Positions 5,442-10,214 of a stretch of 10,214 nt of DNA are shown one piece after another. Every line of letters begins with the position of its first letter. Positions within the stretch are counted from its first letter, which is position 1. The notes beneath the pieces were generated by a model that was given only the letters and a program-made list of their open reading frames with translations, did no database searches and was not told where the DNA came from. Position numbers and translations under genes: made by a program. The stretch comes from Abditibacteriaceae bacterium (lineage in GTDB: Bacteria > Armatimonadota > Abditibacteriia > Abditibacteriales > Abditibacteriaceae), in assembly GCA_031372065.1 (NCBI GenBank), contig JANMKN010000266.1, forward strand, positions 1 through 10,214, in the 5' to 3' direction.

Positions 5442-6173
5442 ATGATGCAGGGAGAATCAATGCAGGGAGTGCTTTATCTGGCTGTGGAGTCGCCACACGT
5501 TTATGTGGAATGTTTGTGCAGCCTGTTGTCGCTGCGTTCGCCCCAACATGGCGCCTACAAGGGATCAATCACCGTGATTACCGATAATCAAATGATGGCG
5601 AACAGGGCAGCGTGTTTGTGCAACGCCCAATCCCACATAGTGCCGCCTTGGTGGGACAATGACTTCCCGCCCGAAGCTCTCAAAAGTCGCTCCCTTAAAA
5701 CGAGCTTATGCAATCATCTCAATTTCGCCACCTACACGACTGCGCTGTTTCTGGATAGCGACACGTTGCTGGCGCAGCCCATTCAACCCTTGTTCGACTG
5801 GTTTGAAAATCAAGGCGCCGATTTAGCCGCATTGCCGTATTATCGAATCGCCGGTGACGCTGGATATGGGTGGAATACCGGCGTGTTGTTGTGGCGCCAC
5901 GACGAACGCATAAAAGATTTCTTCGGCGAATGGAACCGGCAATGGCACGCCGATGGTTATGGCCGCGACGAGGCCGCTTTCTGGCGTGCCCAAGATAAAA
6001 CGGACACGCGCATCGCGGACTTGCCCAGCGTTTTCAATTGGCCTGACAACGAGCGGCGTAATGACACTATTGTGCGCCATACATGGCCGGATAAAAGCGG
6101 TGCCCTTTCCGCTCTGTTCGGCCCCTTTTACCACACAATGTGTCAGCGCTTTGGTGTTGAAAGCGAGGTGTAA
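5442..6173 (+). CDS. GT-A fold glycosyltransferase, GT8-like / nucleotide-diphospho-sugar transferase (243 aa)
   Basis: It carries ITVITD, the DxD motif FLDSDT (5754-5762), WNTGVLLW, DEAAF and LPSVFNW...IVRH in the order typical of GT8-like enzymes. AAGGAG at 5434-5439 is the SD, and alternative starts exist at 5445 and 5460. Confidence 0.8.
   Translation: MMQGESMQGVLYLAVESPHVYVECLCSLLSLRSPQHGAYKGSITVITDNQMMANRAACLCNAQSHIVPPWWDNDFPPEALKSRSLKTSLCNHLNFATYTTALFLDSDTLLAQPIQPLFDWFENQGADLAALPYYRIAGDAGYGWNTGVLLWRHDERIKDFFGEWNRQWHADGYGRDEAAFWRAQDKTDTRIADLPSVFNWPDNERRNDTIVRHTWPDKSGALSALFGPFYHTMCQRFGVESEV
6165..6170 (+). promoter_or_regulatory. Shine-Dalgarno GAGGTG for ATG 6176
   Basis: The sequence reads GAGGTG-TAATC-ATG. 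ATG 6176 is in frame with the 6278-8023 ORF, whose own ATG lacks an SD. Confidence 0.65.
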
Positions 6174-6175
6174 TC

Positions 6176-8023
6176 ATGCCCACGATTCGCCAGCGGAAAG
6201 GCTGAGGGAGCAAGCCCTGCCGTGAGCAGGAAGCGAAGCCGCAGGAAGCAAAGCAAGAAGCCACTCCACAATCAAAAATGACAATTGAAGCGAACAACGG
6301 CTTAATTACCAGCACAGTGACGATAGTCACGGCAGCGCGCAATGCCGCGTTGTTTTTAGGCGCCTGCGCGCGCAGTGTTTTTGTGCAAAGTTCGACGCAG
6401 TGGCGCTGGGTTATCGTGAACGATGGTTCCACAGATGGCACGCTCGCCATTGCGCGCCAGATCGCGGCCAGTGATGAACGTGTGCGCGTGGTCAATCAGG
6501 GGCAAAAGGGCGTCTCGGCGGCGCGCAATGCGGCGTTTTTCCAAGTGGATCATCCTGACGGAAATCCCACATCGGAAAGCACGAGCGAATATATTTTGTT
6601 TTTGGACGCCGATGATGAACTCACGCCGAACGCACTGGAAAAATTGGTGGCACTGGCAAAGCGCTACCCCGGCGCGCCCGCTGTTTGTGGCGCCTTTACG
6701 CTGATCGATGAACGCGGCGCCGCACTGGATTGGTCACCAACGGAAACCCAACTAAAAATAAATCAAAGCGGCCTTCTGACCGGGCAGATTCTTCAGCGCG
6801 ACAATCCGCTGTGGAATCCGGCACAAGTTCTCATCCGACGCAGCGCACTGGAAATGGTGATGGAAAAAGGCAAGGTTTTCGACGAAGCATTTGAAATCGG
6901 CGAGGACTGGGATCTGTGGCGGCGCCTGTCAACCTTTGGCCCTTTTATTTGTGAGCCATTCGTGGCGGTGCATTATCGCAAGCACGCCGCTGGTGTCACC
7001 ACGGCGCGGCGCCCAGAGCTAAGGACAGCAATGGCGCGCATCGCGGAGAAACATAAAAATACACTGGTTCAAAAAAACCTCGTTGATCCGTTGCAGCGCA
7101 TTGAAATTCCCCTCTTTCGTCCGGCGCCGGTGGCAGGGCACGCCATTGTCACGATGTGTAGCGCGGGCTTCGAAAGGTTGCTGGATTCGTTTTTAGGCAG
7201 CTTGAATCGCAATGGCGGTTTGTTGCCGGGCGCGCGTGTTTTCGTGCTGAATATAGACGATAACGCAGCGTGCAACCGTGCTATGAGAGCGCACACCAAG
7301 CAGAATTTAAACGTCACGTCGATTCCCTGCTTTGGCCTGTCGCGCCCATTGCCGGCCAGCAAAGCCGCGCTCTATGCCGCCGCTGAAATAATCGAAGCCG
7401 ACTACTACCTGTGCCTTGATGTGGACACGCTGATTTTGCAATCACTGCGTCCCCTTTTTGAGCAAATGCAAAACGTGGCCGCCCACAAAATTTTATGCGC
7501 GCGCGATGCCAATGGGGATTATCATTGGGCCAACATGGACTTTGGTGTCGCGACTATCGGGGAATATCTGGCAGCGGTTTACGATCTCTGGATGCCGACG
7601 TTTGAAAAGCACGCCACGCGTTTAGGCGCTCCGCTATCGCAAATCGAATACGTGGTAAATGATGGCGTCTTTGGTGGCAGCCGCGCTGCGATGCTGCAAC
7701 TCAGTAACACGCTACGCGAGTGGATGCCGCGCGAGCGCGCCTTTTTAGATGCGCACCCGATTCGCAATCAACTTTTGTTTAATCTTGCCCTTGCCAAAAA
7801 TGATGCCTTTGCGCGCCTCAATGATCTTTACAATGTGCAGGTTCACGCGGTGCAGGGCAACTTGGAAAGGCGCGATAATTCAATGGCTTGGCACCATTCA
7901 AACGGCACGATTTACCCCGCGATTTTGCATTTTACGGGTTACACCAAAAACGCGTTTCCTGACCTGCAACAACAGTTTCGCCTGCAAGAAACCCGTCAAA
8001 ATGCCCTTCAAGGAATGAAATAA
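6176..8023 (+). CDS. Bifunctional glycosyltransferase with N-terminal GT2 and C-terminal GT8-like domains; 581 aa from ATG 6278, or 615 aa from ATG 6176 if the in-frame TGA at 6203-6205 is read through
   Basis: GT2 motifs are VTIVTAARN, VIVNDGSTDGT, GVSAARN, YILFLDADD (DAD 6605-6613) and EDWDLWRRL. The second domain has YLCLDVDTLIL (DVD 7418-7426), VNDGVFGG, NQLLFN, YNVQ and ILHFTG. The domain call is strong, but the 5' extension is inferred. Confidence 0.85.
6227..6262 (+). repeat. Short in-frame tandem repeat QEAK-P-QEAK-QEA
   Basis: The units are CAGGAAGCGAAG / CAGGAAGCAAAG / CAAGAAGCC. The differences among the Q-E-A codons are all at synonymous third positions in the frame of ATG 6176. 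Confidence 0.75.
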
Positions 8024-10214
8024 TGCCTTTAGCCACTGCGCCAACTATCGCTGATTACAGAGATTTCGTTGAAAGCTACAATTCGGGCACGGGCCACACC
8101 GTGCGGTGCCTTGCCAGCAATCCGTTGCCCGCTGGCGCCACCTCGATGGTCTTTCGCGTCTATGATGTGAGCGGCGCTCTGTTTTGGCAATCGGCGGATT
8201 TAATCTTTGCGAGCGGTTGGGTTAATGCCCCGGCGATCACCAGCATAGGCTATCGGGGCTATTTGCAATGGTTTTCGAAGAATGGAACCGGCGAAACGGC
8301 GGGGCCAAAGTTTGGCTTTGACCTGAATCCCACGGATTTCCCCGAACTGTTTGGCGAAACGGGGCCTCTGGTCTTCAGCGACGAGGCGCCCGCGTTGGAT
8401 TCGCCACAAGACGGCGATAACATCTTGCACATCGCCAGCATTATGTGTCTGGGCGCATCCATCGCGGATATTGGCTATGATGCCAGTGCGGCCTTTTTAG
8501 GTAACCCTGGCTCAGACTTCGCGCGTTTGCACGTTAAAGAAGCTCCCGACGATACGGTCAATAGTGGCATCGCCGACATTGATGTTGAAACCATTGAGAC
8601 AACCATCGGGATCGGGCTTATCTCTCCGGCGCCGCTGGTGTGGATGCTGGGCAATTCACATGGCCTGACTTGGGGGCCGCAAAGCAGCATTGAGTTTGTT
8701 CCTGTATTGGGCGTTCGCGATTTGGCGTTGATCGGTGCCACTTTTCTGGGCGCGCGGTGGCACACAGAAGATGCCACGCCCGCTTTCGAGTGGCGCACCG
8801 TTTTTGGCCCACAAACCGAGCGGCGCCTGATGATTCGCGTCAATGCCGTGGGCGGCGCCACACTTTACGACAGCGGGTTTATTACTTCGGGCGAACCCAT
8901 CGCCACCTGCGTGGTTGACCTTGACCCCGGAGATTACATCGCCTCGGTTACGGTCAAGAAAGTGGGCGGCGAAACCAGCGCGCCCGCCACCCTAACGTTT
9001 ATCGTAGACGAAGAGGGTGGCGGAGGGGGCGGTGGTGGTGGTGGCGGCGGCGAGGGCTATTGTTGCCCGCCCGGCTGGACCTATAGCGTGGAATTGGCGC
9101 GCTGCGTGCGTTGCGGCTCCACTGTCGAGGATGCGCCGGACGTGCCCAACGTGCCCGCGCTCGCCAAAGTTTGCACTGTGCCAAAAATCGTCGTCACGGC
9201 GCCGTCGTGGGATGATTCCGACGAGCATCCTACGCAAACGATGGAGTTGCAGCGCCGTGTCAACGCGGGCAGTGGGTTTGGCGCATGGGAAACGGTTCAT
9301 ATTTGGGATAGTCCCGCTGGCACTTACAACGATACCGACGTGGTCTGGTTTTCGGCTTATGAATATCGCGTGCGAGGCTGCAACGATACCGGGTGTAGCG
9401 CGTGGAGCGCCACAGCGTCTCTGACGCTGCAAAGTGGTATGACTATCGCGTGGCTCTCGCCAGCGGCTTTGTCCACGCTTTCCGTCCGTCAGGATTTGAC
9501 GCTTCAGCTCACCGATGACAGCGAGCCGGACGAGTGTGACGATCCCCTTGGTTGCTCGGAAGATGACCCTGAAATTACGCTGTTGATTGATGGCATGGCG
9601 GCCACCATTGACCTTGTTCGAGAATCGGGCACGGCCCGCAACGGGATTTACAAAATCAAGCGCTTCGATACACGCGATTATGCCAATGGGACGCGAACAC
9701 TGACTCTCGAAGCCATCGGCGTAGATTGTTGCCGTGCCCACGCGCTGCGTGATTTTGTTTTCAATAATACATTGCGACGCGGCACACTGTATTTTGAGGA
9801 ACAATATCAAAGCGCGCCGCCCGCTGGTCAAGAATATGGCAAAGCCGAAATCCTGATGCAAAACGAAGCGCTGTATGACCATCCAGCGCGGCGTTACTGG
9901 GTTCGTATGGGATTGACCGCCCTGGCCACCGATCTGGTGGATTGGGAATCGTTAGTTCTTGACCCACTTGCCAAAGTCGCAGCCTTCGATAATCTCCAAG
10001 CCCTCACCGCCGAAGCGTATCAGCACGGCACCACGCCGGAGCGCACGCAAGTCGGCGCTTATGTGCCACTGCTGGTGCCCGGCCCCGAACTCTATTTGGT
10101 GCAGCAATGGAATCCGGTTGAGGTTTTAACTACTTATCTCACCGGGATGGCTGTCGGTGCCGTGCGCTCGATTCGCCGCTACAGCAATGGCCTCTATCAT
10201 GTGTTTGCCAGCAA
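8023..10214 (+). CDS. Large FN3/Ig-like domain protein, probable phage tail/host-interaction protein, 3'-truncated (>730 aa); absent from the supplied ORF track
   Basis: Manual translation from ATG 8023 (TAATG overlap; AAGGA at 8010-8014) gives MPLATAPTIADYRDFVESY... with no stop before the window end. It contains an FN3-like TPAFEW...LYDSGFITSG...DYIASVTV segment, a Gly12 linker, a CCPPGWTY...CVRC motif, the FN3 signature YEYRVRGCNDTGCSAWS (9358-9408), and an Ig-like IAWLSP...ITLLIDG...FDTRDYANGTRTLTLEA segment. Confidence 0.85.
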   Translation, partial: MPLATAPTIADYRDFVESYNSGTGHTVRCLASNPLPAGATSMVFRVYDVSGALFWQSADLIFASGWVNAPAITSIGYRGYLQWFSKNGTGETAGPKFGFDLNPTDFPELFGETGPLVFSDEAPALDSPQDGDNILHIASIMCLGASIADIGYDASAAFLGNPGSDFARLHVKEAPDDTVNSGIADIDVETIETTIGIGLISPAPLVWMLGNSHGLTWGPQSSIEFVPVLGVRDLALIGATFLGARWHTEDATPAFEWRTVFGPQTERRLMIRVNAVGGATLYDSGFITSGEPIATCVVDLDPGDYIASVTVKKVGGETSAPATLTFIVDEEGGGGGGGGGGGGEGYCCPPGWTYSVELARCVRCGSTVEDAPDVPNVPALAKVCTVPKIVVTAPSWDDSDEHPTQTMELQRRVNAGSGFGAWETVHIWDSPAGTYNDTDVVWFSAYEYRVRGCNDTGCSAWSATASLTLQSGMTIAWLSPAALSTLSVRQDLTLQLTDDSEPDECDDPLGCSEDDPEITLLIDGMAATIDLVRESGTARNGIYKIKRFDTRDYANGTRTLTLEAIGVDCCRAHALRDFVFNNTLRRGTLYFEEQYQSAPPAGQEYGKAEILMQNEALYDHPARRYWVRMGLTALATDLVDWESLVLDPLAKVAAFDNLQALTAEAYQHGTTPERTQVGAYVPLLVPGPELYLVQQWNPVEVLTTYLTGMAVGAVRSIRRYSNGLYHVFAS
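9016..9051 (+). repeat. Poly-glycine (Gly12) linker
   Basis: GGT GGC GGA GGG GGC GGT GGT GGT GGT GGC GGC GGC is in frame with ATG 8023. The mixed codons suggest the run is maintained at the protein level. Confidence 0.9.

Follow-up and report, generated by a model that had tools for sequence, protein, structure and literature searches.

The window analysed here, a 10,214-nt stretch that makes up the entire contig C37 (JANMKN010000266.1) of an Abditibacteriaceae bacterium (assembly GCA_031372065.1), carries in a prophage late operon a gene for a double glycosyltransferase whose tenth codon is an in-frame TGA. Judged from the sequence, this codon is probably decoded as selenocysteine (Sec) by the host system, which would give an N-terminally tagged glycosyltransferase. 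A first-pass annotation of the same DNA had proposed Sec insertion or another form of UGA recoding at this place, and its landmarks all hold: the preceding TAA, the Shine-Dalgarno sequence (SD), ATG 6176, the TGA, the hairpin downstream of it, and ATG 6278 in frame to 8023. The Sec reading gains from the host machinery, from the retention of TGA and hairpin in a diverged second copy on the separately assembled contig C260, from the fit to the pattern of selenocysteine insertion sequence (SECIS) elements and from a coding signal after the TGA; covariation contributes nothing to it. The gene and its leader are laid out as follows.

6165 to 6170, plus strand: Shine-Dalgarno sequence GAGGTG, 5 nt before ATG 6176, with −9.7 kcal/mol against the 16S 3' end.
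6176 to 6277, plus strand: 34-codon N-terminal extension with a basic start, UGA at codon 10, Cys at codon 15 and a linker of Q, E, A, K and P.
6203 to 6205, plus strand: in-frame TGA, the likely selenocysteine codon, kept in the C260 copy and the only TGA in the frame.
6216 to 6230, plus strand: SECIS-like hairpin CCTGC-CGTGA-GCAGG with a 5-bp stem and the loop CGUGA, its G at +17 and its U at +18 after the UGA.
6227 to 6262, plus strand: three QEA repeats that, as previously annotated and now confirmed by direct reading, differ at synonymous third positions only.
6241 to 6245, plus strand: second GCAGG, able to pair with 6216-6220 and to hide the GU of the loop; lost in the C260 copy.
6278 to 8023, plus strand: Met35 onward, an open reading frame (ORF) of 581 amino acids (aa) with a GT2 domain and a second GT-A-like domain; Met35 is a possible second start.

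In the mechanism that we propose, ribosomes would start at ATG 6176 with its strong ribosome-binding site, and Sec would be delivered at codon 10 via tRNA-Sec by SelB sitting on the hairpin at 6216-6230. The predicted product is a 615-residue double glycosyltransferase with a basic arm bearing the putative motif U-x4-C (Sec-x4-Cys) on a probably flexible linker; disorder of the arm is judged from composition only, since the AlphaFold model, computed from a 5-row alignment with a mean predicted local distance difference test score of 36.7, was not used. Readthrough would probably be inefficient because of the short stem, the close spacing and a competing fold, the long form would depend on the selenium supply, and a shorter form from Met35 may coexist with it. 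The position in a tail operon and the precedent of mycobacteriophages suggest that the enzyme may glycosylate virion proteins, and the motif by itself suggests that the Sec/Cys pair could serve as a hook for redox reactions or metal binding, comparable to the C-x4-C/U motif in the linker of a chromosomal protein described below.

The host genes on which the first-pass annotation had made a Sec reading depend are present: selA, selB, selD, which has an in-frame TGA of its own and is Sec-containing, and a tRNA-Sec with the anticodon UCA. Of 31 genomes in the class, 8 have selA and 9 have selD. Family searches identified as host selenoprotein genes selD, three genes of the AhpC/TSA type and one with an HMA domain (U-x3-C), and a further gene with a CxxU motif encodes what we take to be an AhpD-like protein; the genes lie on contigs C351, C355, C65, C193, C129 and C287. 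Host searches for the Rdx family and for glutaredoxin returned no TGA-bearing gene, and a motif-only scan of the genome was too noisy to use. The hairpin loops of the host genes read GUU (G at +34), AGUU (+18), GGC (+18), CGUGUU (+23) and CGUGU (+20), and the loop in the window, CGUGA with G at +17, fits their N-G-U pattern. The selD hairpin of the lineage is unusually distant from its UGA (G at +34), and its closing pair is swapped among relatives. One relative, G030 (72% complete), carries TGA-bearing AhpC/TSA genes (L227, L235), yet selA and selD are unmatched there, probably owing to gaps in the assembly.

The segment between the TGA and 6278 contains no in-frame ATG, GTG or TTG, so that only translation through the TGA could reach it in this frame. 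That it is translated, as the synonymous variation of the repeats had hinted, is supported by a coding-like substitution pattern between the two copies. Codons 11-34 show four synonymous changes and one non-synonymous change (P = 0.016, simulation), and in the other two frames of the same segment the changed codons are synonymous in 1/8 and 0/8 cases. The ratio of non-synonymous to synonymous differences (pN/pS) comes to 0.07 over codons 11-34; over codons 2-34 it is 0.12 (Fisher P = 0.006). For comparison, the GT2 core has 0.11, and the downstream and upstream genes have 0.12 and 0.20, respectively.

The SD energy is −9.7 kcal/mol at ATG 6176, −12.9 in C260, where the DNA just upstream of the glycosyltransferase start has been replaced relative to the window, and 0 at ATG 6278; values of −8 or lower are reached by 7.7% of 339 operon-internal starts in this genome. 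The contrast between the two starts that had been annotated therefore stands as far as the strong site at 6176 is concerned, whereas the missing SD at 6278 does not exclude initiation there. The layout itself, with a strong SD and ATG directly after the previous gene, an in-frame stop and then a long ORF, is seen for 4 of 3571 long ORFs, namely the two present copies and two short genes with a new ATG at once after the stop. Similarly, among the 49 events genome-wide in which an SD-ATG start is followed by a stop and a hairpin, these two alone continue into a long ORF (606 and 629 codons; the next has 103).

The hairpin is identical in both copies, with −6.2 kcal/mol for its core and −8.2 and −7.9 for the 33-nt fold in the two copies. 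Under a strict rule, devised after the site had been seen and requiring a perfect stem of at least 5 bp with GU at loop position 1-2 or 2-3, the window hairpin passes, as do 3 of 5 host selenoprotein genes, 8 of 9 selD genes and, among the matches listed, 6 of 12 TGA-bearing AhpC/TSA genes of relatives. With the G confined to +15 to +25, the same rule selects 9/1572 TGA, 8/1549 TAA and 6/587 TAG codons when applied to first stops upstream of long ORFs, two of the nine TGA cases being the present copies, and 12/1261 TGA gene ends, which puts the background at ordinary stops at about 0.5-1%. The consensus model for bacterial SECIS elements, as given in an extract of PMC13188914, has a loop of 3-9 nt, a stem of 4-16 bp, a G at loop position 1-2 followed by G or U, a distance of 16-37 nt from UGA to loop and a minimum free energy of −7.5 kcal/mol or lower. 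By this excerpted model, the window hairpin conforms in loop size (5 nt), stem (5 bp) and position of the G, and is borderline in energy, its core lying above and the 33-nt folds below −7.5, with a competing fold in the window allele. A search of Rfam gave no match at or near a family threshold. The alternative stem AGGG/CCCT (6205-6208/6215-6218) put forward in the first-pass annotation is present in the sequence; it is rejected as a relevant switch, as it does not appear in the best folds and would sit inside the decoding ribosome, and the actual competitor is the pairing of 6216-6220 with 6241-6245.

A number of observations weigh against decoding as Sec, and the first group concerns these signals themselves. 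Starts with an SD weaker than −3 make up 44.5% of the 339 operon-internal starts. The substitution counts are small, and three of the four synonymous changes sit where the QEA repeats differ among themselves, so that the pattern may partly reflect exchange among repeats. In the dicodon model of the host, the extension scores below background (−0.15 after the TGA, −0.25 before it), although the ATG frame still scores better than the other frames. The annotated hairpin exists with its GU loop; its fold energy, in contrast, is not above chance, the stability of the region not exceeding that of shuffled sequence in 4/4 windows (z from 0.05 to −1.10), and what is uncommon about it is position and GU loop rather than energy. 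Its invariance between the copies means that there is no covariation. The gap from UGA to loop is 15 nt (the loop begins at +16) against 16-37 nt in the excerpted model of PMC13188914, the G at +17 is 1 nt nearer to the UGA than in any example of the lineage, and the stem is short. In the window allele, the longer stem 6216-6220/6241-6245, which hides the GU, is 4.8 kcal/mol more stable (−13.3 vs −8.5), whereas the C260 allele lacks this stem and its short hairpin has pair probabilities of ~0.94. The strict rule is post hoc, and the background rises to 0.9-3.2% with the G at +15 to +36 and to 2.7-3.6% under a loose rule. Broken genes, moreover, do accumulate in these prophages, as a nonsense codon and a frameshift in the second copy show.

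The second group concerns homologues. The three close full-length homologues (P0005-P0007; 64%, 61% and 38% identity) have their called starts at a Met near Met35, and the Cys-bearing extension is absent from all three; such called starts would fit either the lack of an extension or the same truncation at a TGA. Only two copies of the extension are present, both in one genome, and no homologue of it with Cys or TGA was found in 30 class relatives, protein collections and viral contigs. Specifically, the N-terminal 50 aa retrieved two spurious repeat proteins only from 1.84 billion representatives, region searches of the extension gave the two copies or nothing, and neither single-protein scans of viral contigs nor the INPHARED phages yielded a match. 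Scans with alignments against contigs of genomes, metagenomes and viruses brought up nothing but generic GT2 proteins (21-42% identity), and an alignment of the second domain matched none of 116 candidate stretches. Degenerate DNA patterns hit 1, 29 and 0 stretches, in whose frames no related gene was read, and tblastn of the 29 found no glycosyltransferase. The second glycosyltransferase domain occurs in 4 of 400 other genomes of the phylum (27-33% identity), and no TGA tag was seen where these proteins start. The proof customary for a selenoprotein family is an alignment of TGA with Cys over many examples, for which Haft's criterion, in the excerpted preprint (bioRxiv 10.1101/2022.07.06.499078), is at least ten; as homologues of the extension were not found, this proof is missing and two copies are far from ten, and the glycosyltransferase does not yet count as a proven selenoprotein. 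A related prophage-like glycosyltransferase in the selA-negative family member G022 (L269:3057-4418, minus strand) terminates in a tail rich in Cys (CxxC, then CxxC), a hint of recurrent Cys tags among these phage enzymes.

A precedent within the lineage is provided by a chromosomal gene on contig C199 (L278:2992-5124; TGA at 13674), which lies upstream of what is presumably a gene for a MoxR-like ATPase. It encodes a 710-aa membrane/coiled-coil protein with a C-x5-U motif in a Gly/Gln-rich linker, and the protein has no match in Pfam or NCBIfam. Counted over genomes whose kinship makes them non-independent, the TGA is present in 6 of 28 genomes of the class (relatives L280-L307), all six among the 8 selA-positive and none among the 20 selA-negative ones, 11 of which have a C-x4-C or C-x5-C pair at its place. 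A hairpin with a GU-containing loop follows the TGA in 6/6 of these genes. Going by these sequences, it is very probable that the lineage places Sec in short Cys motifs that lie outside redox folds. The C199 motif and the phage U-x4-C appear to share a four-residue spacing, a parallel that does not imply homology, and the C199 gene is a candidate selenoprotein better supported than the phage glycosyltransferase.

Of the alternatives to Sec insertion, the one that survives best is that the extension is vestigial, an ancestral Cys or Trp codon having turned into TGA before the copies split, with the glycosyltransferase made from Met35 and the hairpin a product of chance. We consider this unlikely. 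It agrees with the called starts of P0005-P0007 and with the frequency of weak-SD starts in the genome, a TGG-to-TGA nonsense change has indeed occurred in the neighbouring gene of the C260 copy, and the synonymous bias could partly predate the stop. On the other hand, it needs a SECIS-like hairpin to have arisen by chance (0.5-3.6%) in a host that happens to use Sec (8/31), and neutral divergence to have yielded 4/5 synonymous changes; furthermore, the strong SD has been kept, and the ~92% identity of the copies around the TGA shows no recent homogenisation.

Improbable, too, is leaky readthrough of the UGA without Sec, by near-cognate insertion of Trp or Cys, or a phage code in which TGA is a sense codon, with a low level of the long form. 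Readthrough of this kind accounts equally for the coding-like pattern after the TGA, and contig C4 of the genome encodes a second, atypical tRNA-Trp(CCA). Against it, the hairpin after the TGA resembles the SECIS elements of the host. All 74 Trp codons in six ORFs of the window are TGG and none of the six has an internal TGA, from which it follows that the phage uses code 11; together with late genes on contig C145 that read intact under table 11, this rules out a code with TGA as Trp or another sense codon. The atypical tRNA-Trp, which has a weak D-arm, belongs to two extra tRNA clusters (C4 10339-10703 and C272 5671-6560) that are possibly carried by mobile elements.

Still less credit is due to coupling through a leader peptide, in which the 9-codon ORF, or a shift into the upstream frame, brings ribosomes to Met35 and damps expression. 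The strong SD at 6176 and its absence at 6278 would suit such an arrangement, as would the frame of the upstream gene, which is open from 6174 to a TGA at 6279-6281 that overlaps ATG 6278 (ATGA). Against it, 72 nt separate the leader stop from Met35, the UGA shows no evident slippery site, and the arrangement offers no explanation for the synonymous bias of the ATG frame; coding in the overlapping upstream-gene frame is rejected, as 7/8 changed codons are non-synonymous in it. Finally, an error of sequencing or assembly has next to no chance of having produced the TGA, for although public contigs do not cover the window's own allele at this position, the C260 copy keeps SD, ATG, TGA and hairpin, and Logan contigs from two of three runs span the TGA, with no difference listed and 35 or more bases to either side of it (in the third run, the contig stops at 6205), these being contigs rather than reads, from a single study that may include the source sample, with only the C260-type allele at the TGA. 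With the TGA present in two separately assembled contigs as well, a sequencing error is very unlikely, and this explanation is essentially removed.

From Met35 onward, the protein has a clear GT2 domain (PF00535, E = 5.8e-28, 98.4 bits against a curated cut-off of 23.3) with a DxD motif, so that both the score and the motif place it in GT2; LFLDADD is invariant in 4/4 closest sequences. The second GT-A-like domain also has a DxD motif, and no Pfam glycosyltransferase family matches it. The flanking genes are the following.

5442 to 6173, plus strand: upstream late-operon gene (start at 5442, 5445 or 5460), from the ORF list; its TAA at 6171-6173 ends 2 nt before ATG 6176.
8023 to 10214, plus strand: downstream gene for a Cys-rich putative virion or tail protein, open at the contig end, with a weak match to the Ig-like domain Big_13 (E = 0.005).

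The upstream gene product is likely a GT-A-type glycosyltransferase; its match to PF03407 is weak and under the cut-off (E = 0.04). No orthologue of either flanking gene was found in the 30 class relatives, and prophage-like loci with the second glycosyltransferase domain are present in two genomes of the same family.

The assembly comprises 6.1 Mb and is 93.9% complete. Positions 1-48 of the window overlap the ends of both C145 and C370, and C145 carries genes for the terminase large subunit (E = 2e-24) and for major head, neck and tape-measure proteins, which identifies the window as the tail end of a late operon in a prophage. What links this prophage to the genome with selA, selB, selC (the tRNA-Sec gene) and selD is binning and contig-end overlaps (C145-C185/C186-C203-C329), not a single joining contig, and with a rank of 201 among 226 contigs in tetranucleotide distance C37 is atypical but within range. 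The second prophage copy consists of C133 and C260 and is 83-94% identical to the window; C260, at ~88%, is a mosaic with 48-98% identity per 100 nt. There, the downstream gene is 93% identical over its first 326 aa, and the upstream gene (L008:190-918) differs in its C-terminus and is interrupted by a premature TGA at Trp138 (TGG to TGA). This stop and a frameshift in a 956-aa gene (C133, near 4292) make the second copy look decayed. Contig C145 is entered by both C185 and C186, and in run X1 the depth of the window allele is twice that of the C260 allele; several related prophages are probably present in the genome, and C37 may be a collapsed repeat.

Decoding of the TGA as Sec invites a wider reading, which we put forward tentatively and regard as rather unlikely in its entirety. 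A temperate phage would have grafted a Sec-x4-Cys arm onto a virion-modifying glycosyltransferase, a marginal and switchable SECIS element would let host selenium set the amount of tagged enzyme and with it virion glycosylation, and the arm would belong to an unrecognised class of Cys/Sec linker motifs shared with a conserved chromosomal protein. If Sec insertion holds true, phages recode UGA via the host Sec system in a late-operon gene, an enzyme without redox function can carry Sec as an appended tag, and N-termini of this kind are lost unnoticed in gene calling.

The prototype of bacterial genes with a SECIS element inside the ORF is E. coli fdhF. With such genes, as described in the extract of PMC13188914, the window gene shares the in-frame UGA, a 3' stem-loop whose loop positions 2-3 are G and U, and the presence of selABCD in the host; it differs in its 15-nt spacing and 5-bp stem, and in being a prophage late gene for a glycosyltransferase. 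The 2026 catalogue of 119 prokaryotic selenoprotein families in the same paper lists, in the excerpted text, no glycosyltransferase and makes no mention there of phages or viruses, and we found no paper on a phage selenoprotein or a Sec-bearing phage glycosyltransferase in the open-access literature; the portions at hand of PMC13745706 and of an Actinomarina preprint held nothing relevant.

HgcA, in the excerpted preprint (bioRxiv 10.1101/2022.07.06.499078), likewise has its Sec in an overlooked N-terminal extension that gene callers skip by starting at a downstream Met; there, a CU motif is known from many examples in metal handling, whereas here a U-x4-C motif occurs in two copies of a GT2 enzyme. 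The Gly-Sec-Gly context is shared with the selenobacteriocins (TIGR04081, SGUG) and other GUxG selenoproteins in the extract of PMC13188914. The N-terminal 50 aa match no NCBIfam family at E ≤ 1, which leaves TIGR04081 unmatched, no radical-SAM partner is evident in the window, and in contrast to selenobacteriocins the tag is fused to an enzyme.

The virion-glycosylating glycosyltransferases of the mycobacteriophages Che8 and Rita, as cited in an extract of PMC11256854, are similar in that a temperate phage has several glycosyltransferase genes, a likeness of description and not of homology; in the window these genes stand among tail genes, and the extract does not mention Sec for Che8 or Rita. 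Viral selenoproteins made with host machinery are exemplified by the glutathione peroxidases of the poxviruses molluscum contagiosum and fowlpox, the sole viral cases in the excerpted text of PMC8310308, which are captured host redox enzymes of eukaryotic viruses with eukaryotic SECIS elements. Compared with all of these, a Sec-tagged glycosyltransferase and its linker motif would be new, while the mode of working would be that of an ordinary bacterial gene with a SECIS element inside its ORF.

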